Shown piece after piece: positions 922 through 55,648 of a stretch of DNA of 64,000 bases. Every line of letters begins with the position of its first letter. Position 1 is the stretch's first letter. Below the pieces are notes generated by a model. It searched no databases, was not told where the DNA came from, and saw only the letters and a program-made list of their open reading frames with translations. Source of the stretch: Flavobacteriales bacterium (GTDB lineage Bacteria; Bacteroidota; Bacteroidia; Flavobacteriales_F; PHOS-HE28); the NCBI GenBank assembly GCA_019638115.1, contig JAHBUK010000002.1, forward strand, positions 5,867-69,866, read 5' to 3'. A program made the position numbers and the translations under genes.

Positions 922-1058
922 GTAGTGGCGAGTGGCGAGTATCGAGTGGCGAGTGAATGCCCCCATCAAAAACGTTCGTCACAGGGGCATTCACTCGCCA
1001 CTCGGCGGGCAGACCAGCGCGCGGGCACTCGCCACTCGCCACTCAAGACTCGCCACTA
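922..1058. repeat. composite palindromic element: tandem GTGGCGA heptamers - AATGCCCCC...GGGGCATT core - inverted tandem heptamers
   Basis: The arms gtggcgagtggcgagtatcgagtggcgagtg and cactcgccactcg...cactcgccactcgccactc are seen directly. The same element type recurs at 19075-19185. Confidence 0.75.
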
Positions 1059-3624: not shown

Positions 3625-3678
3625 GAAGAACCGCAGCCAAATGTGCCATCTGAAGCACACATTTGGCTGCGGATAACC
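3625..3678. repeat. hairpin repeat copy 1 (stem ccgcagccaaatgtgcc / ggcacatttggctgcgg)
   Basis: This is a perfect roughly 18-bp inverted repeat with a roughly 14-nt loop. Three copies share the stem sequence. Confidence 0.75.
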
Positions 3679-3840
3679 ACGGCCGGCGGATGGGTGAAAG
3701 GGCGAGCGCATGCTGCTGGTAAGGCATGCTGGGGGAATGCCCGGCACGAACGATGCTCCAAAGCCGACCGATGGCCGGACAGGCATTGCGGACCATCCAT
3801 ATATCTGGGTTCGTAAGTGCTTGTATTTATTGGGTGTTCA

Positions 3841-3893
3841 GAAGAACCGCAGCCAAATGTGCCATCATGAGCATACATTTGGCTGCGGATAAA
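3841..3893. repeat. hairpin repeat copy 2, immediately upstream of ATPase gene
   Basis: gaagaaccgcagccaaatgtgccatcatgagcatacatttggctgcggataaaag is near-identical to copy 1. Confidence 0.75.
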
Positions 3894-3906
3894 AGACTTG
3901 CACATC

Positions 3907-5322
3907 ATGCTTATCGGCCGGGAAGAGGAGCGCGACATTCTCCTGGATGCCTTGTCATCCGGGCATTCCGAGCTGATCGCCATCTATGGAAGACGGCGCA
4001 TCGGCAAGACTTACCTGATCCGCGAAGTGTATGCCGGCAAGGTGGACTTCGAGTTCTCGGGCATGCACCGGGGCACGCTCCGGCAGCAGCTCAAGAACTT
4101 CCACCTGGTGCTGCCCGCACGGCTGCGCAAGGGTGGCCCGCCCACCGACTGGCTGGATGCCTTCGCGCTCCTGGGGCGCTACATCGACGGACTTCGAAGC
4201 AAGCGGAAGAAGGTGCTCTTCATCGATGAGTTCCCATGGCTGGACACTCACCGGAGCGGTTTCCTGGCCGCCTTCAGCCACTTCTGGAACGGCTACTGCA
4301 GCAAGCGGAAGGACATCGTGGTGGTGATCTGCGGGTCGGCGGCCAGCTACATGGTGCAGCGCGTGGTGAACAACAAGGGCGGACTGCACAACCGGCTTAC
4401 ACGGCGGATCCGACTGGCACCCTTCAACCTGCGCGAGACGGAGCAAATGCTGCAACACAGGAAGGTGCGGTTCACACGCTACGATATCATACATCTGTAC
4501 ATGGCGCTCGGCGGAGTGCCCTACTATCTGCAACTGCTGAAACGGGGCGAAAGCATGGCCCAGGCCGTCGACCGGCTGTGCTTCCAGCCGCAGGGCTTCC
4601 TGCGTGGAGAGTTCCACAACGTGTTCGCCTCGCTGTTCGACCATGCCGGCAACCACGAGGCCATCGTACGTGCATTGGCCGGTGTGCGCAAGGGCCTCAC
4701 ACGCACCGCCATCCTGCGCAAGAGCAAGGTGTCGTCTGGTGGCACCCTCACCAAGACGCTCAGTGAACTGGAGGAGTCGGGCTTCATAGAGAAGTATGTG
4801 CCCTACGATGCGAAGAAGGACCCGTTGTACCGCATAACGGATGAGTACACGCAGTTCTACCTGCGCCATGTGGAGGGCGGCAAACCGGTAAGGCGCGCCT
4901 ACTGGGCAAAGGAGATGGGTACACCAGCTTATCGGGCTTGGAGCGGATTCACCTTCGAGACCATCTGCATGAAGCATGTGGAGCAGATCAAGGCGGCGCT
5001 GGGCATCCAGGGTGTGCGCTCCACGGAGGGTAGTTGGATCGGCAAGGGCGATGAAAGCGGTGCACAGGTGGATCTGCTCATAGACCGCGACGACAACGTG
5101 ATCAACCTCTGTGAGATGAAGTTCGCGAACGGGCCCTTCACCATCGACAAGAAGTATGCGAAGGACCTGATGGCCAAGAGCGAGGCATTCCGTTCATCCA
5201 CGCGTTCGAGGAAGAGCATCTTCATCACTTTCGTAACCACCCATGGTGTGGCTCAGAACGCGTACAGCAGCCAGTTGGTGCAGAACGATGTGCGCATGGA
5301 GGCTCTTTTCGAGGAGTATTAA
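3907..5322 (+). CDS. AAA family ATPase (Arch_ATPase/ATPase_2 + DUF234-type ATP-binding protein)
   Basis: It has Walker A GRRRIGKT and Walker B VLFIDEF. The overall architecture matches the widespread 'ATP-binding protein' PF01637+PF03008 family. A TTG start at 3898 is an alternative. Confidence 0.8.
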   Translation: MLIGREEERDILLDALSSGHSELIAIYGRRRIGKTYLIREVYAGKVDFEFSGMHRGTLRQQLKNFHLVLPARLRKGGPPTDWLDAFALLGRYIDGLRSKRKKVLFIDEFPWLDTHRSGFLAAFSHFWNGYCSKRKDIVVVICGSAASYMVQRVVNNKGGLHNRLTRRIRLAPFNLRETEQMLQHRKVRFTRYDIIHLYMALGGVPYYLQLLKRGESMAQAVDRLCFQPQGFLRGEFHNVFASLFDHAGNHEAIVRALAGVRKGLTRTAILRKSKVSSGGTLTKTLSELEESGFIEKYVPYDAKKDPLYRITDEYTQFYLRHVEGGKPVRRAYWAKEMGTPAYRAWSGFTFETICMKHVEQIKAALGIQGVRSTEGSWIGKGDESGAQVDLLIDRDDNVINLCEMKFANGPFTIDKKYAKDLMAKSEAFRSSTRSRKSIFITFVTTHGVAQNAYSSQLVQNDVRMEALFEEY

Positions 5323-5368
5323 CCGCAGCCAAATGTGGCATTCAAGAGGCACATTTGGCTGCGGTTAA
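5321..5368. repeat. hairpin repeat copy 3, overlapping ATPase stop codon; lies between convergent genes
   Basis: aaccgcagccaaatgtggcattcaagaggcacatttggctgcggtt has the same stem family. It likely acts as a bidirectional terminator. Confidence 0.7.
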
Positions 5369-5410
5369 TTGGAATGCCATGCGGCACGAGGATTGGTAAA
5401 ATGCGTTTCC

Positions 5411-8181: not shown

Positions 8182-8623
8182 GGCGGCGAAGATCGGCACA
8201 AGGTGCCGATCGTAGGGGCGGACGATCGTCCGCCCGCCGCCATACACCAGAAAGACGATCGTTCGCCCGCCGCAGTGCGCAGGACCAAGCCGTAACACCA
8301 CATTCAGCAGCAAGATGTAAGCACGAACGTGGGCCCCGCGCCCGGGATGGAAGCGGCGGCTGGCCGTAGGACGGGCCATGGCAGGGCGTGGAGCGAGGAG
8401 GCCCCGACGGTAGGAGGGGACCCCGGAGCCCCGCCATGCCAGGACCGGACAAGGACACCACAGCGGACAGCCCGATAAGGCGCCCCGAGCAACATCCACA
8501 ACCCGGTGCTGGTATCTGTGCTGTACCAAGCGAGTTGCAGATGTAACGCAGATACCTTTGCCGCACCATTCGGATACCGAAGATCATTTTCTGATCTTCT
8601 GATCGTCCGATCATCTGATCGAC

Positions 8624-10675
8624 ATGTCCCTCGAAGCCACCGAAAAACGCCAGCTCACCTACGAGCGCGGCAACCACAGCGACGCTTTCCTCATCAGCAC
8701 CTACGAGAAGCTGGTGTACCCGCGCATCATCGAAGAGAAGATGCTGAGCCTGCTGCGGCAGGGCAAGATCAGCAAGTGGTTCAGCGGCATCGGGCAGGAG
8801 GCCATCGCCGTGGGCGCCACCATGGCCCTGCAGGACGACGAGTACATCCTGCCCATGCACCGCAATCTGGGCGTATTCACCACGCGGGGCATGCCTTTCC
8901 GCAAGCTGTTCGCGCAGTGGCAGGGCAAGGCCACGGGCTACAGCAAGGGCCGCGAGCGAAGCTTCCACTTCGGCAGCCAGGAGCACAAGGTGGTGGGCAT
9001 GATCAGCCACCTTGGGCCGCAGATGGGCATCGCCGATGGCATCGCGCTGGCCCACAAGCTTAAGAAGGAGAACCGCTGCACCATCGTCTTCACCGGCGAT
9101 GGCGCCACGAGCGAGGGCGATTTCCACGAGAGCGTGAACGTGGCGGCGGTGTGGGACCTGCCCGTGCTGTTCATCATTGAGAACAACGGCTACGGACTGA
9201 GCACGCCCAGCAGCGAGCAGTTCCGCATGAAGCAGTTCACCGACAAGGCCATCGGCTATGGCATCGAAACGGTACAACTGGCGGGCAACAACATCTTGGA
9301 GGTGTACGACGCCCTGGCGTGGTGGGCCAACAGCGTGCGCGAGAACCCGCGTCCGGTGCTGATCGAATGCATGACCTTCCGCATGCGCGGTCACGAAGAG
9401 GCCAGCGGCACCAAGTACGTTCCCAAAGAGCTGTTCGAGGAGTGGGGCAGGAAGGATCCCGTGGCCAACTACGAGAATTGGCTGGTGGCGACGGGTGTGC
9501 TGACCATTGCCCAGAAGGACGAGATCCGTGCGCGGCTGAAGGACGGCATCGAAGCCGATCTGAAGGTGGCGTTCGAGGAGCCGGAACCGGTGCCGGTGGA
9601 AACCGCTGAGGTTGGGGACGTGTATGCAAATTCCGCCACTGGCCTATTGCCGCTGGCTACTGGCCCCTTGGAGGATCGGGCCAGTAGCCAGCAGCCAATA
9701 GCCATTGGCGAGTCCCGCGAGATCAGAATGATCGACGCCATCCAGGAAGGCATGCGTCAAAGCATGGAACGCCACCCGGAATTGGTGCTGATGGGCCAGG
9801 ACATCGCCGAGTACGGCGGGGCCTTCAAGATCACGGACGGTTTCGTGGAGAAGTTCGGCAAGGACCGGGTGCGCAATACGCCGCTGTGCGAGAGCGCCAT
9901 CCTGGGTGCGGCGCTGGGCCTCAGCATCAAGGGCATGAAGGCCATGATGGAGATGCAGTTCGCCGATTTCGTGAGCGAGGGTATGACCCAGATCTGCAAC
10001 AACCTGGCGAAGATCCATTACCGCTGGGGGCAGCACGCCGATGTGGTGGTGCGCATGCCCACTGGCGCCGGAGTGGGGGCGGGGCCCTTCCACAGCCAGA
10101 GCAACGAGATGTGGTTCGTGAAGACGCCCGGCCTGAAGGTGGTGTACCCCAGCAACCCCTACGACGCCAAGGGCCTGCTGATGACCGCCTTCGACGACCC
10201 GAACCCGGTGATGTTCTTCGAGCACAAAGCGATGTACCGCAGTATCAGCGGACCGGTGCCTGAGCAGCCGTACAGCATACCCTTCGGCAAGGCGCGGGTG
10301 GTGCGCGAGGGCAGCGACCTGAGCATCATCACATACGGAATGGGTGTGCATTGGGCGACGGCCGTGCAGGAGGAGACGGGCATCAGCATGGACATCATCG
10401 ACCTGCGTACGCTCGTACCCTTGGACGTGGAGACCATCCTCGCCAGCGTGAAGAAGACCGGTAAGGTGCTGCTGCTGCACGAGGACACACTGACCGCCGG
10501 TTTCGGTGGCGAGCTGGCGGCCATCATCGCAGAGCAGGCCTTCGAGTACCTGGATGCCCCGATCATGCGTGTGGCCAGCTGGGATACGCCGGTGCCCTTC
10601 GCGGTGCCGTTGGAGCAGGGTTTCCTGCCGAAGGGACGGTTGAGGGAGGCGGTGGAACGGTTGGCGGGGTATTAG
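8624..10675 (+). CDS. fused alpha/beta E1 component of a 2-oxoacid (pyruvate/branched-chain) dehydrogenase, TPP-dependent
   Basis: The N-terminal half is E1-alpha-like (TPP motif region GDGATSEGDFHESVN). The C-terminal half is E1-beta-like (LVLMGQDIAEYGGAFKIT..., FEHKAMYR). This fusion is common in Bacteroidota. Confidence 0.85.
   Translation: MSLEATEKRQLTYERGNHSDAFLISTYEKLVYPRIIEEKMLSLLRQGKISKWFSGIGQEAIAVGATMALQDDEYILPMHRNLGVFTTRGMPFRKLFAQWQGKATGYSKGRERSFHFGSQEHKVVGMISHLGPQMGIADGIALAHKLKKENRCTIVFTGDGATSEGDFHESVNVAAVWDLPVLFIIENNGYGLSTPSSEQFRMKQFTDKAIGYGIETVQLAGNNILEVYDALAWWANSVRENPRPVLIECMTFRMRGHEEASGTKYVPKELFEEWGRKDPVANYENWLVATGVLTIAQKDEIRARLKDGIEADLKVAFEEPEPVPVETAEVGDVYANSATGLLPLATGPLEDRASSQQPIAIGESREIRMIDAIQEGMRQSMERHPELVLMGQDIAEYGGAFKITDGFVEKFGKDRVRNTPLCESAILGAALGLSIKGMKAMMEMQFADFVSEGMTQICNNLAKIHYRWGQHADVVVRMPTGAGVGAGPFHSQSNEMWFVKTPGLKVVYPSNPYDAKGLLMTAFDDPNPVMFFEHKAMYRSISGPVPEQPYSIPFGKARVVREGSDLSIITYGMGVHWATAVQEETGISMDIIDLRTLVPLDVETILASVKKTGKVLLLHEDTLTAGFGGELAAIIAEQAFEYLDAPIMRVASWDTPVPFAVPLEQGFLPKGRLREAVERLAGY
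9635..9708. repeat. imperfect ~30-bp inverted repeat (hairpin) located in-frame in the E1 alpha-beta linker
   Basis: ccactggcctattgccgctggctactggcc ... ggccagtagccagcagccaatagccattgg encodes the linker TGLLPLATGPLEDRASSQQPIAIG. Confidence 0.65.
10601..10675. repeat. direct repeat copy 1 (native 3' end of E1 gene)
   Basis: The 75 bp gcggtgccgttggagcagggtttcctgccgaagggacggttgagggaggcggtggaacggttggcggggtattag is repeated about 90% identical at 11225-11299. Confidence 0.8.
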
Positions 10676-13806: not shown

Positions 13807-13864
13807 TCAACGAGCCTGTTCATCCAGTGCCTGCTGAGGTGTCGTCGACCATTGCCAGGCTTCT

Positions 13865-14030
13865 GAGAGCCTGTTTAGTATCTCTTCAAACTCGTCCCCC
13901 GGTCTCTTTTCCGCCCATGCTTCGCCGAAAAATGATCCCGTAGGCACCGCTACGCGATGATTTTTCGGTTACGCCTGTACGAAAAACAGCCTCGGGGTCC
14001 ATCGTTCAAGAGATCCTAAACAGGCTCTGA
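13865..14030. repeat. nested inverted repeats in a 520-bp intergenic region (outer tgagagcctgtttag.atctctt.aaac arms ~110 bp apart; inner ccgaaaaatgatc/gatgatttttcgg)
   Basis: It was seen directly. It is a possible MITE remnant or a structured RNA. Confidence 0.4.
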
Positions 14031-17285: not shown

Positions 17286-17665
17286 GCGCAGCCCTTCACC
17301 GCCACGCCGCTGATCTCCACGTTCACCCCGCGCGGCAGGCCCTTCACCGCATAGGCTTCGCGTGCTGGTGGTACCTCGCCGAAGTAGCTGCCGTACACCT
17401 CGTTCACCGCCGCGTAGAGGCTCATGTCGCTAAGCAGGATCGTGATCTTCACCAGGTCGCTGTAGTCCATGCCGGCGGCCTTCAGCAGCTTGCCGAGGTT
17501 CTCCATCACCTGCCGCGTTTCGGTTGCGATGTCGCCGGTGTGCAGATTACCCGCTTCGTCGAGCGCGATCTGGCCGCTGAGGTAGAGCGTGCCATTGGTG
17601 AGGATGGCCGGCGTGTAGGGTGCGATTGGCTTTGCCGCGTTGGGCGGGAAGATGGCTTGTTTCAT
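17282..17665 (-). CDS. ridA: RidA/YjgF family reactive intermediate deaminase
   Basis: It reads MKQAIFPPNAAKPIAPYTPAIL...GQIALDEAGNL...PARE..AVKGLPRGVNVEI. The long upstream extension in the ORF track is non-coding repeat. Confidence 0.8.
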   Translation of the reverse strand: MKQAIFPPNAAKPIAPYTPAILTNGTLYLSGQIALDEAGNLHTGDIATETRQVMENLGKLLKAAGMDYSDLVKITILLSDMSLYAAVNEVYGSYFGEVPPAREAYAVKGLPRGVNVEISGVAVKGCA

Positions 17666-17710
17666 GGGTGCGAAGGTGGGGAAAGGGGCGAGGGGCGGAA
17701 TGGGCATAAA

Positions 17711-17882
17711 TGAAGAATGAAAAATGTAGAAGGAAAAATGATGAATGAAAGATGCCGGGACCAAGGTGGTGAGCTGAACGGGTCGGTGGATGGATGTCAG
17801 ACTTGGCTTGCGATGGACGGCGCCAGCTTCGCGGGTAGCAGTAGTCACAGTTCTACATTTTTCATTCTACATTTTTCATTGC
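17711..17882. repeat. composite palindromic element (gaatgaaaaatgtagaa arms / ttctacatttttcattc x2 inverted, ~95-bp GC-rich core)
   Basis: It was seen directly between ridA and surE. It has the same tandem-arm/core/inverted-arm architecture as the GTGGCGA elements. Confidence 0.65.
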
Positions 17883-17894: not shown

Positions 17895-18701
17895 ATGCCC
17901 ACGGATACCTTTGCCCCCGCAATGGAACAACTGCCCCTCATCCTGGTCACCAACGACGATGGCATCTTCGCCCCCGGTATCCGCACCTTGGCGGAAGAGA
18001 TGAAAGCCTACGGCCGCGTGATGGTGGTGGCGCCGGACAAGCCGCAGAGCGCCATGGGCCACGCGATCACCATCCACAGCTTCCTGCGCCTGCAAAGCGT
18101 GGACCTGATGGACGGCGTGGAGGCCTGGAGCTGCAGCGGCACGCCCGTGGATTGTGTGAAGCTCGCCATCTACAAACTCCTCGGTGGCAACAAGCCCGAC
18201 CTGTTGGTGAGCGGCGTGAACCACGGTGCCAACATCAGCATCAACGTACTGTACAGCGGCACCATGAGCGCGGCGGTGGAAGGGGCCATGGAAGGCATCC
18301 CCAGCATCGGCTTCAGCCTGATGGACCACGCCATCGAGGCGGACTTCAGCCAGGTGCGACCCGTGATCCGCAGTGTGGTGGGCAACACCCTGAAGCACGG
18401 CATGGCACCCGGCACCTGCCTGAACGTGAACGTGCCGCGCAACGATGGGATGCCGCTCGCCGGCATGCGCGTGTGCCGTCAGGCCAAGGCCAACTGGGAG
18501 GACGAGTTCGAGACGCGGCTCGATCCCGGCAACAAGGAGTACTACTGGCTGCGCGGCGAGTTCAAGAGCGAGGACCAGGGCCACGACACCGACGTGTATG
18601 CCGTGAACAACCGCTATGTGAGCATCGTGCCCACGCAGTACGACATGACCGCCCACCACAGCATTGCCACCCTCAACACCTGGGACCATGCGCTGGGATA
18701 G
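17895..18701 (+). CDS. surE: 5'/3'-nucleotidase SurE
   Basis: It has the LILVTNDDGIFAPGI N-terminus, which is the SurE signature. Confidence 0.85.
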   Translation: MPTDTFAPAMEQLPLILVTNDDGIFAPGIRTLAEEMKAYGRVMVVAPDKPQSAMGHAITIHSFLRLQSVDLMDGVEAWSCSGTPVDCVKLAIYKLLGGNKPDLLVSGVNHGANISINVLYSGTMSAAVEGAMEGIPSIGFSLMDHAIEADFSQVRPVIRSVVGNTLKHGMAPGTCLNVNVPRNDGMPLAGMRVCRQAKANWEDEFETRLDPGNKEYYWLRGEFKSEDQGHDTDVYAVNNRYVSIVPTQYDMTAHHSIATLNTWDHALG

Positions 18702-18992: not shown

Positions 18993-20219
18993 ATGGGCAA
19001 GCGCATCTACATGATAGCCGGTGAAGCCAGTGGCGACCTCCACGGGGGGAACCTGGTGCGCGAGCTAGTGAAGATGAGTGGCGAGTGGCGAGTGGCGAGT
19101 GAAATGCCCCTTCCAAGGGATGCTGATCCCGGGGCATTACACTCGCCACTCGCCACTCATCACTCGCCACTCATTACTCCTCACGCGCCACTCCGCATCC
19201 GAGCCTGGGGGGGCGATCGCATGGCCGCTGCCGGCGCCGAAGTGGTGAAGCATTACCGCGAGCTGGCCTTCATGGGCTTCACGCAGGTGATCATGAACCT
19301 GCGCACCATCCTCCGCAACATCGAGCAGTGCAAGGAGGACATCGAAGCCTTCAAGCCCGATGCGCTGGTGCTGATCGACTACCCCGGCTTCAACCTGCGC
19401 ATCGCCGAATGGGCGCACGCCAAGGGCATCCCCGTGCACTACTACATCAGTCCGCAGGTGTGGGCCTGGAAGAAGGGTAGGGTGCACACCATCAAAAAAG
19501 TTGTGGACCACATGTACGTGGTGTTGCCCTTCGAGCAGGCCTGGTATGCGCAGTACGGCATGGCGGTGGACTTCGTTGGGCACCCGCTGCTGGATGCGAT
19601 CGAGCACGAAGGCAAGACCCCGCTCCAGCCCCTTCCCGGCGATGATGGCCGTCCGGTGGTGGCCCTGCTGCCCGGCAGCCGTAGGCAGGAGATCGCGCGC
19701 ATGATGAAGCTGATGCGTGCCACCGCGCGCCATTTCCCGGACCACCGCTTCGTGCTGGCCGCCGCGCCCTCCATACCGGACGAGGTCTACGCAGCCCAGC
19801 CCGGCGATCCGCCCGTTACCGTGGTGAAGGGCCGCACCTACGACGTGTTGCGCCACGCCCGCGCCGCGCTGGTCACCAGCGGCACCGCCACCTTGGAGAC
19901 GGCGCTCTTCGGGGTGCCTGAGGTGGTGTGCTACAGCGGCAGCGCCATAAACGTGTGGCTGGCCCGCCGTCTGGTGAAGGTGAAGTACATCAGCCTGGTG
20001 AACCTGATCATGGACCGCGAGGTGGTACGCGAACTGATACAGAGCGAGCTCACCGAGCAGAGCCTGCGTACCGAACTCGCCGCATTGCTGGCGGATGGTC
20101 CCAGGCGCAACACCATGCTCGCCGACCTGGCGGAATTGGGGCGCGTGTTGGGCGGCCCCGGAGCTTCGCGCAAGGTTGCATCGGGCGTGTGGAAAAGTCT
20201 GTTCAGCGCTTCACGCTGA
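18993..20219 (+). CDS. lpxB: lipid-A-disaccharide synthase LpxB carrying a ~37-codon in-frame repeat-element insertion
   Basis: It has the MGKRIYMIAGEASGDLHGGNLV N-terminus and the ...GGDRMAAAGAEVV...ISPQVWAWKKGRV LpxB motifs. Residues WRVASEMPLPRDADPGALHSPLATHHSPLITPHAP are encoded by the palindromic element. Confidence 0.85.
   Translation: MGKRIYMIAGEASGDLHGGNLVRELVKMSGEWRVASEMPLPRDADPGALHSPLATHHSPLITPHAPLRIRAWGGDRMAAAGAEVVKHYRELAFMGFTQVIMNLRTILRNIEQCKEDIEAFKPDALVLIDYPGFNLRIAEWAHAKGIPVHYYISPQVWAWKKGRVHTIKKVVDHMYVVLPFEQAWYAQYGMAVDFVGHPLLDAIEHEGKTPLQPLPGDDGRPVVALLPGSRRQEIARMMKLMRATARHFPDHRFVLAAAPSIPDEVYAAQPGDPPVTVVKGRTYDVLRHARAALVTSGTATLETALFGVPEVVCYSGSAINVWLARRLVKVKYISLVNLIMDREVVRELIQSELTEQSLRTELAALLADGPRRNTMLADLAELGRVLGGPGASRKVASGVWKSLFSASR
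19075..19185. repeat. composite palindromic element (GTGGCGA heptamer family) inserted in-frame inside lpxB
   Basis: gagtggcgagtggcgagtggcgagtg-aaatgccccttccaagggatgctgatcccggggcatt-acactcgccactcgccactcatcactcgccactc is 111 bp, a multiple of 3. Confidence 0.8.
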
Positions 20220-20256: not shown

Positions 20257-21450
20257 ATGCGCCCCTTCTTCCTATTACTTGGCGTGATCGCCATTGGTGC
20301 ACACGCGCAGGAACGCATGGTGCGCATCGGCCTGCTGCACGACCGCACCGTGAAACAAGTGGTGGTGATGAGCGCCAAGGGCAACAGCACGGTGCTGGCC
20401 GATGGTGTCCGGGTGGGCGAGATACAGACCAACGACGGCCTGAAGATCGAGGTGGGGCCCGGCGGCCTGGTGGCCAAGTCGCTCACCCTTTCCGTGGAAG
20501 CCAAAGAGCGGATTGAAGTGGTGCCGCGCTTGGCCGATGGTGGCTTCCGGATGCGGGCACCCGAGACCAAGGTGGCCGAGCGCACCTACCCCGGCAGCTT
20601 GCTGGTACTGCGCAGTGGCACTAGCTTGAAGCTGCGCAACCACGTGATGCTGGAGAACTACGTGGCCGGAGTGGTACAGGCCGAAGCAGGCAATCATCAC
20701 CACATCGAGTACTACAAGCTGCAGAGCGTGAGCTGCCGTACCTATGCGCTGAGCAATCTGCGCAAGCACTTGCCAGACGGCTTCGAGCTTTGCGATGGGG
20801 TACACTGCCAGGTGTTCCATGGTAGGGTGCGCAACGACAGCATCCGCATGGCGGTGGATGCCACGCACAGCTTGGTGTTGGTGGACCCCGAGATCCGCTT
20901 GATCCACGCCACCTTCCACAGCAACTGCGGCGGCGAGACCGTGAACGCCGAGGATGTATGGAGCAAGAGCGAGCCCTACCTGCGCGCCACGGCCGATACC
21001 TTCTGCCTCGGTGCTCCGCAATCCAATTGGGAGAAGACCATCCCGCGCCGCGAATGGGTGGCCTACCTGAAACGGCGCTATGGTATACAGGCGGACAACG
21101 AAGCACTGTTGGAGCCGCTGCTCAACTACGAACCGCAGTGCCGTGATCTTTACCTGGGTAACATGTGGCCATTGGTTCCGCTGAAGAACGTGCGCGAGGA
21201 CTTCAAGCTGCGCTCCACTTATTTCAGTGTGCGCAGCGAAGGCGAGAACGTGGTGCTGAAAGGCCGCGGTTTCGGGCACGGTGTGGGGCTCTGCCAGGAA
21301 GGCTCCATGCGCATGGCCCGCGCGGGACGCTCCTACACCGACATCCTGCACCACTACTACACGGATGTCCACCTGGTGGATCTCCAGACCCTGGATTTCT
21401 TCCGCGAAGAACGGCCGGCCAACGGTCCTTCCGCGCCCACCAGCCGCTAA
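20257..21450 (+). CDS. SpoIID/LytB domain-containing protein
   Basis: It has the signal MRPFFLLLGVIAIGAHAQ. It has the SpoIID-type motifs (LENYVAGVV.AE, TYALSN, HSNCGGET, GRGFGHGVGLCQEGSMRMA). Confidence 0.8.
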   Translation: MRPFFLLLGVIAIGAHAQERMVRIGLLHDRTVKQVVVMSAKGNSTVLADGVRVGEIQTNDGLKIEVGPGGLVAKSLTLSVEAKERIEVVPRLADGGFRMRAPETKVAERTYPGSLLVLRSGTSLKLRNHVMLENYVAGVVQAEAGNHHHIEYYKLQSVSCRTYALSNLRKHLPDGFELCDGVHCQVFHGRVRNDSIRMAVDATHSLVLVDPEIRLIHATFHSNCGGETVNAEDVWSKSEPYLRATADTFCLGAPQSNWEKTIPRREWVAYLKRRYGIQADNEALLEPLLNYEPQCRDLYLGNMWPLVPLKNVREDFKLRSTYFSVRSEGENVVLKGRGFGHGVGLCQEGSMRMARAGRSYTDILHHYYTDVHLVDLQTLDFFREERPANGPSAPTSR

Positions 21451-21469: not shown

Positions 21470-22699
21470 ATGGCTCAAGCCCGCATCGTCGTAAACGACA
21501 CCCACCAACGCATCCGTCAGGGCCATCCCTGGGTGTTCGCCACGCAGGTGGTGAAGGAACAAGGCAGCTACCAGCCCGGTGATGTGGTGCAGGTGGTTGA
21601 TGTACGCCACGGTCCACTGGGGCAGGGCTACATCAACCCGGCATCCATGATCCGGGTGCGCATGCTCACCAACGACATGGCCGATCGGGTGAGCGCGGCT
21701 TTCATTACCGCACGGGTGGAACGGGCGGTGCGCATGCGCGAGCAGGTGTGGTTGCAGCGCGATGCGCAGGGGCGCGCAAGCGGCAGTTGCCGCCTCATCT
21801 TCGGCGAAGCCGACCAACTGCCCGGCCTGGTGGTGGACCGTTTCCAGGATGTGAACACCGGTACCGTGGTGCTCGTGCTCCAGTTCCTCACCCTGGGCAT
21901 GGAGCGCTGGCGCAGTGTGGTGGTGAAGGCGCTGGAGGACCTCGTGAAGCCTGATGGCCTGGTGTTGCGCAACGATGTGCCCATCCGCGAGAAGGAAGGT
22001 CTGGCCCAGGAGAAGGGCTTCGCTTCGGCCGCCTGCAACACCAAGATGATCATCGCCGAGCGTTCCGGTGCGGGCGAGCCGGTGCTGATGCACGCCGACC
22101 TGATGGAGGGGCAGAAGACCGGCCATTTCCTGGACCAGGTGTTGAACCACGGCTCCATGGCCTTGGTGAGCCGTGGCAAACGGGTGCTGGATTGCTTTAC
22201 GCACACCGGTGGTTTCGCCCTGCATGCGGCACGGCACGGTGCGGCCGAAGTGCTGGGTTTGGACATCAGTGCGGATGCCGTTGCCCTGGCCACGCGCAAC
22301 GCCGAATTGAACGGCTTCACAAAGGTTCGCTTCCAAGCGGCCAACGTGTTCGATCACCTTACCGAGGCCAGCCGCACGGGCCAACAGTGGGATGTGATCG
22401 TGCTGGACCCACCGGCTTTCGCCAAGAGCAAGGGAGCCTTGGAGAACGCCTATCGCGGCTACAAGGAGATCAACCTGCGGGCATTGAAGTGCCTGCGCCC
22501 CGGTGGCGTGCTGGTTACTTGCAGTTGCTCGCAGCACATGGTGCCGGAGCTTTTCCGCCAAATGGTGGAAGAGGCTGCCTGGGATGCCGGAGTGCGCCTG
22601 CGTGAATTGTACAACGGATCACAACCTCCGGATCATCCGGTGCTGTGGGGTGCGCCTGAAACGCACTACCTGAAGTGCTTGATGCTGGAAGTGCTTTAG
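21470..22699 (+). CDS. rlmI: class I SAM-dependent 23S rRNA (cytosine-C5) methyltransferase, RlmI/RlmK-like (PUA + MTase)
   Basis: It has the MTase motifs VLDCFTHTGGFALHAA and DVIVLDPPAFAKSK, with an N-terminal PUA-like region. Confidence 0.75.
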   Translation: MAQARIVVNDTHQRIRQGHPWVFATQVVKEQGSYQPGDVVQVVDVRHGPLGQGYINPASMIRVRMLTNDMADRVSAAFITARVERAVRMREQVWLQRDAQGRASGSCRLIFGEADQLPGLVVDRFQDVNTGTVVLVLQFLTLGMERWRSVVVKALEDLVKPDGLVLRNDVPIREKEGLAQEKGFASAACNTKMIIAERSGAGEPVLMHADLMEGQKTGHFLDQVLNHGSMALVSRGKRVLDCFTHTGGFALHAARHGAAEVLGLDISADAVALATRNAELNGFTKVRFQAANVFDHLTEASRTGQQWDVIVLDPPAFAKSKGALENAYRGYKEINLRALKCLRPGGVLVTCSCSQHMVPELFRQMVEEAAWDAGVRLRELYNGSQPPDHPVLWGAPETHYLKCLMLEVL

Positions 22700-22997
22700 G
22701 CGCCCTGAAGCTCGTGCCCGAAAAGGGCTTCCGGCTCGTGCCGGCGACGTGGCAGCAAGGCCACCAGAAACCCCAGCGGCCCCAAGGGCAGACCGATCAT
22801 GTACCAGCTCATCAGGTCGTAGCCGCGTTGCCCTGCGATGAAGGCGGTGATCAACGCGAAAACAAAGGGGAGGACCAGTAATGCGATCATTTCCAGTGTG
22901 TTTCTGGATGATGAAGCTAATGGCACCTGTAGCGATCGATCCTCGGGGTAGGTAGAAAGGTGTTCTCGTGCGATGAACTACCTTTTCCGACAGACGA

Positions 22998-28902: not shown

Positions 28903-30822
28903 TTACCCATTCATCGACACCAAAAACTCCTCATTGCTCTTCGTCCCTTCCATGTGCTTCTTCACGAAATCCATGGCTTCCACGCTGTTCATGTCGGCCA
29001 AGTGCTTGCGCAGGATCCAGGTGCGTTGCAGCACGTCCTTGTGGTGCAGGAGGTCGTCGCGACGGGTACCGCTGCTGAGGATGTCGATCGCAGGGAACAC
29101 ACGGCGGTTGCTGATCTTGCGATCGAGCTGCAGTTCCATGTTGCCGGTGCCTTTGAATTCCTCGAAGATCACTTCGTCCATCTTGCTGCCGGTATCGATC
29201 AGCGCGGTGGCGAGGATCGTGAGGCTGCCGCCGTTCTCGATCTTGCGGGCCGCACCGAAGAAGCGCTTGGGCTTCTGCAGCGCATTGGCGTCCACACCAC
29301 CGCTGAGGATCTTGCCGCTGGCAGGCTGCACGGTGTTGTAGGCGCGGGCCAGTCGGGTGATGGAGTCGAGCAGGATCACCACATCGTGACCGCATTCCAC
29401 CATGGCCTTGGCCTTCTCCAGCACCAGGCCGGCAACTTGCACGTGGCGCGTTGCGGGCTCATCGAAAGTGCTTGCGATCACTTCCGCCTTCACGTTGCGC
29501 GCCATCTCGGTCACCTCCTCCGGACGCTCATCGATCAACAGCACGATGAGGTATACCTCCGGGTGGTTCTTGGCGATCGCGTTGGCCACGTCCTGCAGCA
29601 ACACGGTCTTACCGGTCTTGGGCTGCGCCACGATCAGGCCGCGTTGTCCTTTGCCGATGGGGGCGAAGAGGTCCAGCACGCGCATGCTGAGGTTGGCGCC
29701 CTGCTCCGCGAGGTTGAACTTCTCGTCGGGGAAGAGCGGCGTAAGGAACTTGAAGGGCACACGATCACGCACCCACTCAGGGTCGCGACCGTTGATGCTT
29801 TCCACCTTCACCAGCGGGAAGAACTTGTCGCCTTCGCGCGGCGGACGGACATAGCCGTGCACGGTATCGCCGAGCTTCAGGCCGTACTGCTTGATCTGCT
29901 GCTGGCTCACGTACACATCGTCGGGTGAGGCCAGGTAGTTGTAATCGCTGCTGCGCAGGAAACCGTATCCCTCGGGCATCACCTCCAGCACGCCGTCGGT
30001 CTCCACGAAGGCCTCGAAGTTGATCTGCTCGCGCTGCGGTTGGCGCTCTTGGCGTTCGTTGCGCTGCTGGTCGCGATCATGGCGCCCCTGCTGGTCGTTG
30101 CGGTTCTGCTCGCCGCGCTGCTGTTCCGGGCGTTGCTGTTCGCCGCGCTGTTGGTCGCCGCGGTTCTGCTCGCCACGTTGCTGTTCGTTGCGCGGGCGCT
30201 CGCCTTGTTGTTGCTGATCACGCTGCGGGCGTTCGGGACGGCGTTGGTCGCGGCGGTCGCGGTCGTCGTTGCGCGCGCCGCCTGCCTCGGGTTGTGCAGG
30301 TCGGTCCCCGCGCTGTTCGCGGCGGTCCTGGCGTTGCTCGGGCTGGCGTCGTTCGTTGCGTTGGTCTCGGTCGCGACGCTCGCGCACCGGGGGCGCTTCT
30401 GGTGCATCGGAAGCTTGCGGCAGCTCAGCGGGTGCGGCCTCTTCCTTCACGCTTGAAGCTGGGCGCTCGTCCTCCTCCTCGTCATCGTCGTCATCCTCAT
30501 CATCGTCATCATCATCATCATCGTCGTCATCATCGTCATCCTCATCGGCATTGCTGAAGAGTCCTTCATCCAGGGTGGCGGGTTCGGGATCCTCCTCCGG
30601 CACCACCTCGTCGGCCGTGGCCATTTCGGCTATTGCTTGCTCATCACCCACGAATGTGGGGCCGATCGGTTTTTCGCGGGCCTGGTGCTTCTCCTGTTCT
30701 TCCAGGATCTTGGCGATGAGGTCCTGCTTCTTGAGCGTTTCGGCCTTCTTCAGGTTGAGCGCCTTGGCGATCTCCTTCAGTTCGGCGAGCTTCATGGCGC
30801 TCAATTTCGACTGGTCGTACAT
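28903..30822 (-). CDS. rho: transcription termination factor Rho with large disordered N-terminal insertion
   Basis: It has the N-terminus [24 protein letters not shown]. It has a poly-D/E tract followed by an RQ-rich repeat region. The C-terminal RecA-like ATPase has [15 protein letters not shown]. Confidence 0.9.
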
Positions 30823-31105
30823 GGACGAAGGGAATGAATGATTGGGAGGGAAAGGACCCGGGTCGGGTCACTTCTGTGGAGCCTTGCGGCTGCTGGGAAA
30901 ACCGTGATGAGGAACGTTGGAAAGGTGCGGAACGGGCTCAACATCAACCCATCATATGCAACACACCTTGTATTGATGCGGTGCAATGTTAACGCCTTCG
31001 GCCGAACTGACGCGCTTGCTCCGACGAAAAAGCGACATCCGGGCATCGGCACCATGGCACTTCTACCTTTGCCGCCCCCGGAGCCCATCCGGGAACCCTG
31101 GTACC

Positions 31106-38496: not shown

Positions 38497-38640
38497 GGTG
38501 AATGGGAGTTGGTGAATGGCGAATGGGAAGTGCCGTCCCGCGATCATCAACCTCGCAACCTGTGCGACATCGTAGGCATTTCCCATTCACCACCTCCCAT
38601 TCATCACCTCCCATTCACCAACTCCCATTCACCATTCGCC
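38497..38640. repeat. composite palindromic element (GAATGGGAG nonamer arms, inverted CTCCCATTC arms)
   Basis: gggtgaatgggagttggtgaatggcgaatgggaag...core...catttcccattcaccacctcccattcatcacctcccattcaccaactcccattcacc has the same architecture as the GTGGCGA family. Confidence 0.7.
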
Positions 38641-38682: not shown

Positions 38683-39498
38683 ATGCAACAGATCATCCTC
38701 ATCACCGGCGCTTCCAGCGGAATGGGCAAAGCCTTCGCGCAGCGCCTGCTCAACGAGGGCCACATCGTATACGGCGCCGCACGGCGTGTGGAGCGCATGC
38801 ACGACCTGGAGCACGCAGGCGGCCACGCGATCGCCATGGACGTTACCGATGATGCCTCAATGCAGGATGCCGTGGCGCGCATCATCGCTGAGCAGGGCCG
38901 CATCGACGTGCTGATCAACAACGCGGGCTACGCCATCTACGGTGCGGTGGAAGAGACAAGCATCGCGGACGCGCGCCGCCAGTTCGAGGTGAACCTCTTC
39001 GGACTGGGACGGCTCACGCAACTGGTGCTGCCCCACATGCGCAAGGCGGGCAAGGGGCGCATCATCAACATCAGCAGCATGGGCGGTAAGATGTACACGC
39101 CGCTGGGCGCCTGGTACCACGCCACCAAACACGCGCTGGAAGGCTGGAGCGATTGCCTGCGTTTGGAGCTGAAGCCCTTCGGCATCGATGTGGTGATCGT
39201 GCAACCGGGCATCATCAAGACCGAGTTCGCCGATGTGATGACCGCGCCAATGCTGCAACGCAGTGGTGTGGGGCCCTATGGCGAGTTGGCGCGACGCGTG
39301 GCCAAGGGTGCTGAGAACGGCAGGGAAGGCGGGCAGGGATCGGTACCCGAGGTGATCGCCGAGCTGGTGTCGAAGGCCGTCCGTGCCCGTAAACCGCGCA
39401 CCCGCTATGCCGGTGGTTTCCTGGCCAAGCCGGTGATGTTCATGCGCATCTACGGCGGCGACAGGCTGTTCGACAAGATGATCATGAAGGCGGCCTGA
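38683..39498 (+). CDS. SDR family oxidoreductase
   Basis: It has the TGASSGMGKA Rossmann motif and a YxxxK active site region (YHATKHALEGW). Confidence 0.85.
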   Translation: MQQIILITGASSGMGKAFAQRLLNEGHIVYGAARRVERMHDLEHAGGHAIAMDVTDDASMQDAVARIIAEQGRIDVLINNAGYAIYGAVEETSIADARRQFEVNLFGLGRLTQLVLPHMRKAGKGRIINISSMGGKMYTPLGAWYHATKHALEGWSDCLRLELKPFGIDVVIVQPGIIKTEFADVMTAPMLQRSGVGPYGELARRVAKGAENGREGGQGSVPEVIAELVSKAVRARKPRTRYAGGFLAKPVMFMRIYGGDRLFDKMIMKAA

Positions 39499-41486: not shown

Positions 41487-44400
41487 ATGAGACGACCAAC
41501 TATCCGCAACTATGTTGTTTGTGCCGCCTTCTGCGCGGCCCTTCCCGGGGCGTGGGCTGCCACCATACCGGTAACCAATACCAACGATGCAGGTGCCGGT
41601 TCGCTTCGCGAAGCGGTCGCGCTTGCGAACGCGGGTGACACCATCACCTTCGATGCATCCACCAACGGAACACCCATCGTGCTCGGCACCGGTGGTATCT
41701 CCATTGCCGTTCCGCTCACTGTGCTTGGCAACGGTGCTTCCAATACGGTGATCAGCGGTGGAATGCTGGATCGCGTCTTCCACATCACCAATGCGGACGG
41801 CGTGGAACTGAACGGCCTCACCCTTACCATGGGGCAGGCAGAGCACGGTGGAGCGTTGCTCATCGCGGGTTCCACGGTAAGCCTGGTGGAATGTATGGTC
41901 ACCAACAGCATGGCCATGATCAACGGTGGTGGTATTCATGCTACTGGCGGATCATTGTTCCTGATGGGTACCACCGTTTCGGGCAACGTTGCTTCCGGAG
42001 CTGCGGCTTCGGAAGGTGGTGGTGGCATCTACAACGCAATGAACACGTTGATGATCGATGCCACGTCGGCATTGACCAACAACATGGCCAATGGTGCCAG
42101 CGGGAACGGAGGTGGTCTATTCACGGCATCGGGTGTGGTGCAGATCACCGGCGCCACCATCTCGGGCAATGCTGCCAACCGCGCTGGTGGTGGTATCGAG
42201 ATCACCGTGGGTGACCTGCTCTTGGCGGATGTGATGCTCAGCGACAACGATGTGGCTGGAATGGCCGGCACACCGAACCCAGGCAATGGTGGCGGATTGC
42301 ATGCCACCGGTGCAAGTACCATCATGATCACGGGCGGTACAGTGACCATGAACCGCGCTGGCCGCGAAGGTGGTGGCCTGTGGAATGCTGCCGGTACCAT
42401 GACGGTGGATGGCGTAGTGGTGGATAACAACGTGGCGCACGGTCCTGCGGCACACGACGGTGGAGGTGGACTCTTCAACAACGGTGGAACGTTGATCGTG
42501 CAGAACGGCACCATGATCACCAACAACGTGGCCGATGGCGCTGCCGGCAGTGGCGGTGGTGTCTTCAACGAAGTGAATGGTGTGCTCACGATCACCGGAA
42601 GTACCATAATGGGTAACTCCGCCGTGCGTGCTGGTGGTGGCATCGAGGACAATGCCGGCGCAGCCGGTAGTGTCACTTTGGTGGATGTGATCCTGAACAA
42701 CAACATGACGGGTAGTGCGCCGGGTAATGGTGGTGGTTTCCACATCACCGGTCCTGGTGTCGCGACGATCACTGGCGGAACCGTGAACGGCAACGTTGCT
42801 GCCCTTGAAGGCGGTGGCTTGTGGAATGGCACCGGCACCATGCTGGTGGATGGTGTAACGATCGATGGCAACGTGGCCAACGGCGCCCTGGCCGATCAAG
42901 GCGGTGGCGGCATCTTCGCCATTGGCGGAACCGTTACGGTCCAAAACGGAACGGTGATCAGCAACAACATGGCGAACGGCGCTGCGGGTAGCGGCGGCGG
43001 TATCATGATCGATACCACGGCCACGCTGATCATCATGAACAGCACCTTGCACAACAACCACGCGAACCGCGCGGGTGGTGGCATCGAGATCTTCGGTAAA
43101 CCCGGTTTGCTGCACGTGGTAACGGACGTGATCTTCACCGACAATACCACCGGTCCTGCGCCAGGCAATGGCGGTGCGGTCCACATCACAGGCCCCGGCG
43201 ACATGAACATCACCGGCGGATCGGTGACCGGCAATACCGCCACTCGTGAAGGCGGTGGTCTTTGGAACGGCTCCGGAACCATGGTGGTGGATGCCGTGAT
43301 GATCGATGGCAACATCGCAAGCGGCCCTGCTGCGGATGATGGTGGAGGGGGACTCTTCAACAATGGTGGAACACTGATCGTGCAGAACGGTACCATGGTG
43401 ACCAACAACATCGCCGATGGTGCTGCTGGTAGCGGTGGTGGCCTGTTCAACTTCAACGGAGTGGTCATGGTCGATTCCGTGTACTTCGGCATGAACGAAG
43501 CGGTGCGTGCGGGTGGTGGCATTGAAGCGCTCAACGGAACCACCACCGTGAGCAACTCCATGTTCGTTGGCAACGACTGTTCAGCGGAAGGAGTGCTTCC
43601 CGCCTTTGCGCCGGGTAATGGCGGAGCGGTACACGTGACCGGTGCAGGAGTGTTCACCTTCATGACCAGCACGGCGGAGAACAACAAGGCAGGCAACGAA
43701 GGAGGCGGTCTTTGGGGAGCCAACGCGGGCGTGCTGAACGTCGTGCGCAGTACGGTGAACGACAATCTTGCGCCCAAGGGTGGCGGCCTCTTCCTGCAAG
43801 GTGGTGGTCCTGATACGGGCGTGATGCTCGTGGATCGTTCCACGGTAGCAGCGAACAAAGCGACCACTGGTGGCGGTGTGCAGGTGAATGGTGGCGAGGC
43901 GATGTTGCTGGCCTCCACGATCGCAGGCAACAGCGCCTTGGAGACCGGTGGTGGCGCATTCCTGATGGCTGGCATGATCAGCACCAACAGTTCCATCATT
44001 GCGGACAACACGGCGCCGATGGCCGCTGACTTCAGTGGTGGTTTCAGCAACGCCATGTTCACCTTGGTGGAAGATGGAACGGGTGCAATGGGCATCGCCG
44101 ATGGCGTTGACGGCAACCTGGTCGGTGCGGATCCCGGCCTCATGCCCTTGATGGACAACGGTGGAGCTACGCGTACCATGGGCCTGGCTTGTGGCAGCGT
44201 TGCCATCAACGCCGGAGATCCTGCCCTGATGGACGACGATCAGCGGGGCATGCCGGTGTTCAACATGCAGCGTGACATGGGTGCTTTCGAGCTGCAAGTG
44301 GATTGCGATTCACTCTGTGCCGAATTCTCCGTGGAGATCGAAACGGGTTGTGTTGCCGTGGACAATGGTTGGGCGAACATCGTTGAGATCAACGGAGCCA

Positions 44401-44834
44401 TGGAACCCTACTACATCGAATGGAGCACGGGCTCCATGGAGATGGGCATCACCGATCTCATGGATGGCGACTACTGGGTGATCGTGAAGGATGTGAACGG
44501 CTGTGTCACGAAAGTGGATTTCACGATCGACTGTAGCACGGTCGGCGTGGGCGAATTGGAAGGACCACTGGGAGCAAGTGTGAGTTTGTACCCTGTACCT
44601 GCCAATGAGCTGCTGAACGTTTCCGTGACGACTGCGGTGGATGGTGTGATGGACCTGTTTGTGACGGATGCTGTCGGACGCCGGGTGATGGAATTCACTT
44701 CGGAAGTGTTTGCGGCCGGTGCGCTGCGCACGGTAACGATGGATGTGGGTGCATTGGGCAATGGTAGCTACCTGCTCACGATGGTCGGTCGCAATGGATC
44801 GACAAGCTCCGTACGCTTCATCATAGCGCGGTAA
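41487..44834 (+). CDS. large T9SS-secreted parallel beta-helix repeat protein with SprB repeat and Por C-terminal sorting domain
   Basis: It has tens of GGG(L/I)(F/W)N...GT(L/M)x(V/I) beta-helix units. It has an SprB-type repeat (EPYYIEWSTGSMEMGITDLMDGDYWVIVKDVNGC). The C-terminus SYLLTMVGRNGSTSSVRFIIAR is a T9SS CTD. Confidence 0.8.
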   Translation: MRRPTIRNYVVCAAFCAALPGAWAATIPVTNTNDAGAGSLREAVALANAGDTITFDASTNGTPIVLGTGGISIAVPLTVLGNGASNTVISGGMLDRVFHITNADGVELNGLTLTMGQAEHGGALLIAGSTVSLVECMVTNSMAMINGGGIHATGGSLFLMGTTVSGNVASGAAASEGGGGIYNAMNTLMIDATSALTNNMANGASGNGGGLFTASGVVQITGATISGNAANRAGGGIEITVGDLLLADVMLSDNDVAGMAGTPNPGNGGGLHATGASTIMITGGTVTMNRAGREGGGLWNAAGTMTVDGVVVDNNVAHGPAAHDGGGGLFNNGGTLIVQNGTMITNNVADGAAGSGGGVFNEVNGVLTITGSTIMGNSAVRAGGGIEDNAGAAGSVTLVDVILNNNMTGSAPGNGGGFHITGPGVATITGGTVNGNVAALEGGGLWNGTGTMLVDGVTIDGNVANGALADQGGGGIFAIGGTVTVQNGTVISNNMANGAAGSGGGIMIDTTATLIIMNSTLHNNHANRAGGGIEIFGKPGLLHVVTDVIFTDNTTGPAPGNGGAVHITGPGDMNITGGSVTGNTATREGGGLWNGSGTMVVDAVMIDGNIASGPAADDGGGGLFNNGGTLIVQNGTMVTNNIADGAAGSGGGLFNFNGVVMVDSVYFGMNEAVRAGGGIEALNGTTTVSNSMFVGNDCSAEGVLPAFAPGNGGAVHVTGAGVFTFMTSTAENNKAGNEGGGLWGANAGVLNVVRSTVNDNLAPKGGGLFLQGGGPDTGVMLVDRSTVAANKATTGGGVQVNGGEAMLLASTIAGNSALETGGGAFLMAGMISTNSSIIADNTAPMAADFSGGFSNAMFTLVEDGTGAMGIADGVDGNLVGADPGLMPLMDNGGATRTMGLACGSVAINAGDPALMDDDQRGMPVFNMQRDMGAFELQVDCDSLCAEFSVEIETGCVAVDNGWANIVEINGAMEPYYIEWSTGSMEMGITDLMDGDYWVIVKDVNGCVTKVDFTIDCSTVGVGELEGPLGASVSLYPVPANELLNVSVTTAVDGVMDLFVTDAVGRRVMEFTSEVFAAGALRTVTMDVGALGNGSYLLTMVGRNGSTSSVRFIIAR

Positions 44835-48573: not shown

Positions 48574-48589
48574 GGGGGAAGGTGTGATG

Positions 48590-48870
48590 ATGTGAAAATG
48601 TGAGGATGTGTTGCTTCGCTTTGCTTCGGCAAGCCTCGCAATGACGGCTCGCAATGACAAGATGTGGAGATGTTTTGCTTCGCTGAGCTCGCAATGACAG
48701 ATGTGAAGATGAGAACGCTTCGACTTCGCTCAGCGTTGTGTGTTGCTTCGCTTCGCCTCCCGACAAGCAGGCTCGCAATGACAGATGTGAAGATGGGATG
48801 ATGTGTTGCTTCGCTGCGCTCGCAATGACAGATGTGAAGATGGGATGATGTGAAGGAGTAGGGGGCGGTG
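48590..48870. repeat. intergenic tandem repeat array (~47-bp unit GATGTGAAGATGGGATGATGTGTTGCTTCGCTGCGCTCGCAATGACA, ~5 variable copies)
   Basis: It was seen directly between the pirin start and the peptidase stop. Confidence 0.75.
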
Positions 48871-55515: not shown

Positions 55516-55648
55516 GGCTGAAGGCGCGTGTGGCAGGCCGAAGCTAACGAAAGTGCTGCGCCGCGTCCGTGCTGTTGAAGCGCTGGTATTGGAACTGAAA
55601 AGGGCCGCACCAACGCGGTACGGCCCTTTTCACGACGAGCATCGGAGA

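Follow-up and report, generated by a model that had tools for sequence, protein, structure and literature searches.

The stretch of DNA considered here, called the window throughout, comprises 64,000 nucleotides of a Flavobacteriales bacterium (GenBank assembly GCA_019638115.1, contig JAHBUK010000002.1, positions 5,867 to 69,866 of the forward strand) and has a G+C content of approximately 61%. Five foldbacks with four types of repeat units (E1-E5) were identified in it. They share a general plan, with 7-nt units in tandem on one side of a core and the reverse complement of that run on the other. The elements are 77-173 bp long, with arms formed by 30-63 nt of tandem heptamers:

E1, 922-1058, no strand: GTGGCGA foldback in the spacer between the divergent starts of a DUF6702 gene (minus strand, ATG at 903) and a peptidase M1 gene (plus strand, ATG at 1070); left arm 923-955, inner stem 943-963/984-1004, loop 964-983, 21-nt side insert 1005-1025, right arm 1026-1058.
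E2, 19073-19193, plus strand: GTGGCGA foldback in frame within lpxB (18993-20219); left arm 19073-19110, loop 19111-19130, right arm 19131-19193.
E3, 38497-38640, no strand: GGTGAAT/GGGAGTT foldback that follows a TonB-receptor-like gene (stop at 38488) and precedes a short-chain dehydrogenase gene (ATG at 38683) on the same strand; left arm 38497-38531, right arm 38577-38640.
E4, 17708-17880, no strand: AATGAAR foldback between the divergent ridA-like gene (minus strand, ATG at 17665) and surE (plus strand, ATG at 17922); left arm 17708-17754, core of about 96 nt, right arm 17851-17880.
E5, 9634-9710, plus strand: CCACTGG/CCAGTAG heptamer foldback in frame within the alpha/beta linker of a fused E1 dehydrogenase (E1dh) gene (8624-10675).

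Four of these loci had been described in an earlier note, made from the sequence alone, as tandem repeats around a core followed by inverted repeats, and a repeat search together with Tandem Repeats Finder (TRF) confirms both the inversion and the tandem periodicity of the arms. The note placed all of them at gene boundaries except for the lpxB copy. This is correct for E1, E3, and E4, but E1 and E4 occupy spacers between divergent starts and not gene ends, and lpxB does not hold the sole intragenic copy, because E5 lies in frame within the E1dh gene.

In the repeat search, the flagged loci rank among the longest inverted repeats of the window, and E5 was found as well. The window has eight inverted repeats whose arms reach at least 18 nt with at least 80% complementarity, versus 1.3 in dinucleotide shuffles (maximum 3), and four of the eight have heptad-periodic arms, versus 0.03 expected from the shuffles. 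TRF assigned a period of 7, or its compounds 14 and 21, to all arms (period 7 or 14 at 924-955, 1026-1057, 17708-17754, 17851-17880, 19076-19101, 19140-19193, and 38581-38634), and the period-7 autocorrelation of the arms is 0.59-0.68 for E2-E5. The basic unit is 7 nt at all loci. The GTGGCGA unit of the earlier note stands, but its "GAATGGGAG" is GGTGAAT/GGGAGTT, a 14-nt compound, and its "17-mer" is AATGAAR/AATGTAG (AATGAAA + AATGTAG), also a 14-nt compound of heptamers. GGG runs of the kind that could form quadruplexes are absent from GTGGCGA, AATGAAR, and CCACTGG and occur in some E3 units only.

All five elements fold significantly as single-stranded DNA, with z-scores from -4.5 to -12.2 (E1, -57.3 kcal/mol, z -11.3; E2, -48.6 kcal/mol, z -12.2; E3, -38.6 kcal/mol, z -7.1; E4, -31.4 kcal/mol, z -4.5; E5, z -8.1) and energies reached by 0 of 200 shuffles. 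A truly palindromic core, earlier ascribed to every locus, is found in E1 and E2 only, as an 11-bp stem GTGAA(A)TGCCCC/GGGGCATT(A)CAC with a 20-nt loop; the core of E3 is a weak hairpin and that of E4 is without structure. The arms are not mirror-perfect, and variant units have no compensation on the other arm. The G-rich arm is the 5' one in E1-E4, and the polarity of E5 is opposite. At another divergent spacer (30823-30860), a purine-rich sequence GGGAATGAATGATTGGGAGGG resembles the E3 units, has no clear inverted partner, and may be a decayed element.

The sequence of E2 is the same in an independent Logan assembly (0 mismatches in 12,366 nt). Two Logan contigs, the independent assembly (L001) and that of a 91% relative (L002), both start at 17854, within the right arm of E4: heptamer foldbacks fragment short-read assemblies.

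E2 adds approximately 35-38 residues (SGEWRVAS...HSPLATHHSPL) to LpxB. The loop into which they fall, from ELF..A to L.IRAWGGD, ranges from 8 to 89 residues across 120 homologues (67-91% identity). Empty loops have 8-10 residues, filled ones bear differing repeat peptides, and the inserts have a scattered distribution on a tree from which the loop was left out. Among the matches listed, no E2-type insert is present in distant Bacteroidota LpxB genes; 3 of 80 such genes carry solo in-frame heptamer arrays in a second loop just after the GHPL motif (L147, 931-961; L155, 3219-3242; and L167, 3680-3705, with units AAAGTCA, GTCGGGA, and ACAAGGA in the order listed). In the AlphaFold model, the insert is a low-confidence coil between the helix 12-28 and the strand 67-73, with a block-mean predicted local distance difference test score (pLDDT) of 38-55 versus 85.6 overall. 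The insert is thus shown, as far as a predicted structure can show it, to be tolerated in frame as a disordered surface loop of LpxB.

Two relatives, L002 and L003 (91 and 77% identity, respectively), have GTGGCGA arms at the same lpxB site, around a core GTCTGCC...GGCAGAC. The core stem of E2, GTGAAATGCCCC/GGGGCATTACAC, matches the core of E1 from the same genome and not those of the lpxB orthologues, which points to exchange between copies sharing arms. The E1/E2 core pattern was absent from 208 fetched loci.

The E1dh linker holds three unrelated types of insert at one place, in proteins about 90% identical to that of the window: a window-like heptamer foldback, a GTTGTCA/TGACAAC heptamer foldback (L209), and a small hairpin CCCGTAGCGTCGACCCATCGGGTCGACTTACGG (L210). 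The same small hairpin is also present in the lpxB loop of L205, L206, and L208, and comparison with the sister L207, which is without it, reveals a clean 54-nt insertion into a GGNGCN tract of L205. Copies with GTAG and its complement CTAC at the stem ends (CCTGTAGCGTCGATCCCATCGGGTCGGCCTACGG) are located at 1878-1911 in L205, 2103-2135 in L208, and about 2360-2395 in L210. In different relatives, the hairpin is translated in the lpxB loop and the E1dh linker as ..SIPSGRPT.. or ..RSVDPSGR... An intergenic match lies in the window at 22922-22950 on the plus strand, where the first 21 nt (22922-22942, GGCACCTGTAGCGATCGATCC) match the first 21 nt of the hairpin. The GTAG hairpin may be a mobile mini-hairpin.

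At the E1 site, a foldback with the same arms and core stem is found in L209 (DUF6702 86% identical) and L325 (93%). The arms and stems are nearly invariant and the loops are unalignable or inverted, while the genes on either side have, at fourfold-degenerate sites, 67-78% identity between the window and L209. The loop of L325 is the reverse complement of the window loop (964-983) at 17 of 19 positions, and therefore an inversion has occurred between the arms; the side insert and two units are in tandem duplicate in the same relative. The spacer of a more distant relative (L326, 78%) contains two diverged copies of a foldback with GGCTTCG/GGCTGCG units around a gene of the PF05635 (23S_rRNA_IVP) family. 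Upstream of surE, L003 has an AATGAAG left arm, as in the window, and CATGNNCA octamers on the right side; L208 has inverted CATGTGCT octamers, and L205 has GTGTTGC-type repeats. The earlier note held that confinement of these sequences to the window would count against an element family; the same elements occur at orthologous sites in relatives. Across the lpxB, E1dh, E1, and surE sites, there is persistence of architecture and position, with turnover of units, copy number, cores, and loop orientation.

Beyond these relatives, an exact 19-mer of GTGGCGA units was found in at least 120 stretches of species-representative genomes from Flavobacteriales, Planctomycetota, Acidobacteriota, Chloroflexota, Verrucomicrobiota, Alphaproteobacteria, Cyanobacteria, and others. 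Among the viral contigs of IMG/VR, it has 69 stretches, compared with 28, 13, and 5 for control heptamers of the same composition. Since the control heptamers also form arrays, GTGGCGA is common but not unique, and the idea of a uniquely special unit was rejected. One 40-kb IMG/VR contig contains at least seven copies whose short cores are similar and which often end a few bases ahead of an ATG; hence, dispersal of copies within a genome does occur.

A TRF census of 2.64 Mb of fetched loci yielded 254 arrays of period 6, 850 of period 7, 140 of period 8, and 199 of period 9, with 0, 123, 9, and 1 inverted pairs, respectively. Thus, the loci sampled reveal a specificity of inverted pairing for 7/8-nt units. 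The G-rich (G>C) arm is the 5' one in 121 of the 123 period-7 pairs (85/85 GTGGCGA-like and 36/38 with other units). The directions of replication and transcription are symmetric processes and cannot set this polarity. A Chi-like cause found no support, as the single GTGGCGA heptamers of the window are not skewed between the strands (13 vs. 9), nor did avoidance of Rho loading (solo arrays in long open reading frames (ORFs), by crude ORF calls, are C>G in the sense strand in 62 cases and G>C in 42). Period 7 also leads the tandem arrays in loci chosen by lpxB alone (10/24), which come mostly from relatives of about 50% identity among the matches listed and were used solely as an unbiased sample of repeats. 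The units in these loci are diverse, and a universal heptamer consensus GGNGANT was rejected.

Genes of the PF05635 family, which encode an Avd-like four-helix bundle, number 12 in the fetched loci, and 11 of them are at most 40 nt from a period-7 array (3.6 expected by random placement; P ~5e-6). Those in or beside heptamer arrays include L077 82-462, L012 4230-4601, L326 993-1346, L157 10649-10996, L121 5419-5760, L014 1163-1510, and L055 7734-8000. Among the cases are a locus chosen by lpxB alone (L157), loci of Alphaproteobacteria and Acidobacteriota, and the E1-orthologous site of L326; the L077 gene lies between direct (TCGCCAC)9-11 runs. The window itself contains no PF05635 gene, and a literature search found no paper tying these genes to heptamer arrays.

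The reading that we favor, and to which we assign a probability of roughly one half, is that the heptanucleotide-repeat foldbacks E1-E5 are non-coding elements that act as DNA, maintain themselves, and are for the most part neutral or selfish. The orthologous sites show them to be long resident at permissive positions (divergent-promoter spacers, the LpxB surface loop, and the inter-domain linker) and to change there rapidly in unit number, unit sequence, and core, with loops that can flip and with nesting of small hairpins. Under the proposed mechanism, replication slippage would alter the number of units, and within genes the in-frame outcomes alone would survive. Recombination or template switching across the hairpin (quasi-palindrome correction) would maintain the likeness of the arms and flip the loops, and ectopic conversion between copies with shared arms would swap the cores. 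The arrays would also act as landing pads for small hairpins and gene cassettes.

Several points weigh against this reading. It does not account for the origin of new copies, the period of 7, or the 5' position of the G-rich arm. Evolution in place alone falls short of explaining the dispersal seen on the IMG/VR contig and the 11-bp core stem that E1 and E2 have in common. Slippage and template switching do not predict the polarity and the restriction to 7/8-nt units, which point to a directional, possibly enzymatic, process. The conservation of the E1 arms and stems above that of synonymous sites could mean selection for function. Finally, the survey of the host genome covers the 64-kb window, and each site is represented by 2-4 orthologues, too few for a covariation statistic.

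An unlikely alternative is that the elements are non-autonomous transposons similar to MITEs (miniature transposable elements with inverted repeats) or REPINs, moved in trans by a Y1/RAYT-type enzyme that recognizes the hairpin arms. The element size of 77-173 bp and the dispersed copies with common core features (E1 and E2, and the IMG/VR contig) agree with it, as does the GTAG-containing small hairpin clearly inserted at several unrelated sites. Furthermore, the related genome L209 has a Y1_Tnp (IS200/RAYT-type) gene fragment of 85 aa (21662-21919), which adjoins an inverted repeat with 36-nt arms (21137-21258). However, inspection of E1 and E2 reveals no target-site duplication, and the arms have variable lengths and ends that differ between orthologues, so that there are no fixed terminal inverted repeats. 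The four unit types of the window cannot be aligned as one family and could not serve one sequence-specific enzyme. Moreover, the elements are retained, and are not polymorphic, at the orthologous sites of relatives that have 78-93% amino-acid identity, and none of the 10 window proteins scanned is a transposase or RAYT.

The REP/MITE-like family of the earlier note survives as a class of dispersed palindromic repeats and not as one sequence family with a REP tag, fixed terminal inverted repeats, and target duplication. Repetitive extragenic palindromic sequences (REPs) are imperfect palindromes of 20-40 bp that carry at one end a conserved GTAG or CGTC tag, which is unpaired, and occur in nearly identical copies (PMC3733652, PMC3116915). 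Like REPs and REPINs with their RAYTs, the window elements are short dispersed palindromes, and those of the known systems are often inverted pairs and extragenic. The foldbacks are not REPs, because their arms are tandem heptamers without a GTAG or CGTC tag; GTAG/CTAC is found solely at the stem ends of the small hairpin of relatives, and GTAG also in the window sequence that matches it (22922-22942). They are not MITEs, because they have neither fixed ends nor a target duplication.

Promoter-like sequences around E1 and E4 bear on a second alternative. Bacteroidetes promoters have a TAnnTTTG-like -7 consensus. Similar boxes are situated a few bases upstream of start codons directly outside the E4 arms (e.g., TACCTTTG at 17906-17913, just downstream of E4) and upstream of the gene starting at 8624, and near-matches occur on both sides of E1. 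By their position, with arms upstream of both -7-like boxes, the E1 and E4 foldbacks probably fill the spacer between two promoters, so that transcription with either gene is unlikely, and any effect on expression would operate via promoter geometry or cruciform extrusion. A role as insulator or supercoil buffer is a possible conjecture for E1 and E4 only.

More generally, all five elements would be functional in cis, either as binding-site arrays for an oligomerizing protein or as cruciform spacers buffering negative supercoiling between divergent promoters. We consider this doubtful. In its favor, -7-like boxes flank the two elements that fill divergent spacers, the conservation of the E1 arms and stems exceeds that of fourfold-degenerate sites, and the architecture is kept at the same site while the sequence changes. 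In addition, ribbon-helix-helix proteins such as omega and MetJ bind tandem 7- or 8-bp repeats. On the other hand, two of the five copies are translated within housekeeping enzymes, many LpxB orthologues have no insert, and the diversity of units would require many different binding proteins. Across phyla, a survey found 21 co-directional, 8 convergent, and 6 divergent contexts and hence no enrichment for divergent spacers, but it is crude and unreliable because stop-to-stop ORFs swallow upstream elements.

The window also contains a related tandem array. Four 8-nt units (TCTGATCN, TCTGATC-type) occupy 8589-8620 on the plus strand, between a -7-like box (8553-8560) and the ATG of E1dh at 8624. 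This solo array is not a foldback, and its fold is not significant (z -1.3 for 8570-8625). It is kept in L210 and lacking in L209, where GCGATCAGC alone stands, which suggests expansion in place from a seed.

The census results lead to a different and equally tentative possibility, also improbable in our estimate, namely that heptamer foldbacks arise from a dedicated DNA process, directional and conserved widely, and not from generic slippage. The short ones would then be the cargo-less form of a family similar to intervening sequences (IVSs), with the IVP protein as partner or cargo, and their arms might arise at 3' ends through templated extension or snap-back synthesis. This proposal is based on the 121/123 polarity, the pairing of 7/8-nt units only, and the 11/12 adjacency of PF05635 genes. 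By analogy only, 23S rRNA intervening sequences reportedly exist with or without an IVP open reading frame, and these too are long-stem insertions with short forms and PF05635-carrying forms. They differ in that no rRNA context is present here, and the IVP genes are beside or between arrays and not demonstrably in a foldback loop. Eukaryotic foldback transposons, again as an analogy only, similarly have arms of short tandem repeats.

A role at the RNA level (intrinsic or bidirectional terminators, mRNA-stabilizing hairpins, or small RNAs) is very improbable: although the predicted hairpins are very stable and E3 directly follows a stop codon between co-directional genes, E1 and E4 are upstream of both flanking genes and probably outside transcripts, E2 and E5 are in coding sequence, and the arms are imperfect with uncompensated variant units. 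Specifically, a terminator scan called none of the elements, and no T runs were seen after the 3' arms, whereas the terminators that are evident in this genome consist of short GC hairpins flanked by A and T tracts (e.g., 55600-55635). A role as terminators, suggested in the earlier note, is contradicted by these observations. Rfam gave no matches at the gathering threshold for the window, L209, and L003, and no tRNA or tmRNA genes were found by the respective search.

Comparison with known systems places the window elements in a class already described, by the likeness of their heptamer arrays and convergent pairs, while the cause of this class is unexplained. The in-frame copies E2 and E5 recall the Rickettsia palindromic elements, which are repeats of about 100-150 bp tolerated in frame in genes as surface peptides. 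In both systems, a palindromic insert is kept in the protein, and there are homologues with and without it; the Rickettsia elements differ in being sequence-conserved families without heptamer arms from an unrelated phylum, so that homology is not expected, and they are likened here by mode of working alone. Cyanobacteria reportedly have STRR heptamer arrays with hairpins of 21-27 nt, the small dispersed repeats (SDR), nested inside. These resemble the 54-nt hairpin in the L205 tract and the E1 and E2 cores, which is a lead and not a test; the phylum and the sequences are different.

The closest known systems include, besides the STRR/SDR and the TAACTGA arrays, those of Xanthomonas, where convergent GGGAATC pairs, 70-75 per genome, have no known function and no link to mobile elements (Rehm et al., 2015, PMC4692102). 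Both sets consist of tandem 7-nt units, usually about four copies, on opposite strands with the G-rich array first; both are dispersed, mostly intergenic and sometimes intragenic, without a link to insertion sequences and with species-variable length. In contrast to the window, a Xanthomonas genome has one unit type, with quadruplex-forming G-runs, and its copies are mostly near stop codons, between co-directional or convergent genes; nested hairpin cores and in-frame inserts were not part of that analysis. The G-runs are a trait of the Xanthomonas and Nostoc units and not necessarily of the whole heptamer class.

TAACTGA heptamer arrays are common to Beggiatoaceae, Cyanobacteria, and five Bacteroidetes, and no mechanism for their transfer is evident (MacGregor, 2015, PMC4679880). 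Similarly to the arrays studied here, they are located just upstream of start codons, and contigs break in them; flavobacterial spacers contain several different heptamer arrays that are lacking in close relatives. They differ in that almost all are direct repeats, with a single inverted case, and the role proposed for them is the binding of a translational regulator at the RNA level. In Geobacter metallireducens, a family of four tandem heptamers has 49 copies between and within genes (PMC2700814). Further heptanucleotide and octanucleotide families are paired on opposite strands there, as in the window, but the units are different, they were read as regulator binding sites or regulatory RNA, and no comparative analysis was made.

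In many bacteria, no long simple repeats are more over-represented than heptanucleotide arrays, whose origin and role are unexplained. The window offers a compact, well-controlled case, with five foldbacks whose orthologous sites show both persistence and turnover, and the specificity for period 7, the strict polarity, and the adjacency to IVP genes are testable regularities that any mechanism must explain. In practice, such elements break short-read assemblies, lengthen annotated proteins by repeat peptides, and extend ORFs upstream of true starts.

The window contains several other repeats. Three copies of another, sequence-conserved hairpin (CCGCAGCCAAATGTG, 12 nt, CACATTTGGCTGCGG) are located at 3629-3680, 3845-3895, and 5318-5369. 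The AAA-ATPase gene enclosed by them (3898-5322) is lacking in the syntenic region of L209, and this hairpin looks like a classical REP-like or terminator-like repeat or like the termini of a cassette that was inserted. A composite array at 48574-48860, upstream of a pirin gene, has five copies of CTCGCAATGAC next to TTGCTTCGC in alternation with 8-nt GATGTGAA-type units; the segment 48574-48870 was rejected as a foldback, being a direct repeat with a fold z of +1.1. A 167-nt nested imperfect palindrome without tandem units lies at 13864-14030 in a 414-nt intergenic region (arms 13866-13889/14005-14028 and 13896-13943/13950-13997). Tandem repeats in the coding frame (15/30/60-nt units, with a TCGTCA/TCA run) are situated at 30088-30551, inside the gene 28903-30822. 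Finally, an ORF of 1115 aa (41487-44834) lies in a stretch of lower G+C content (0.56-0.60; surrounding 41-47 kb), where the GC3-based gene filter called nothing, and the 41-47 kb stretch may be foreign DNA.

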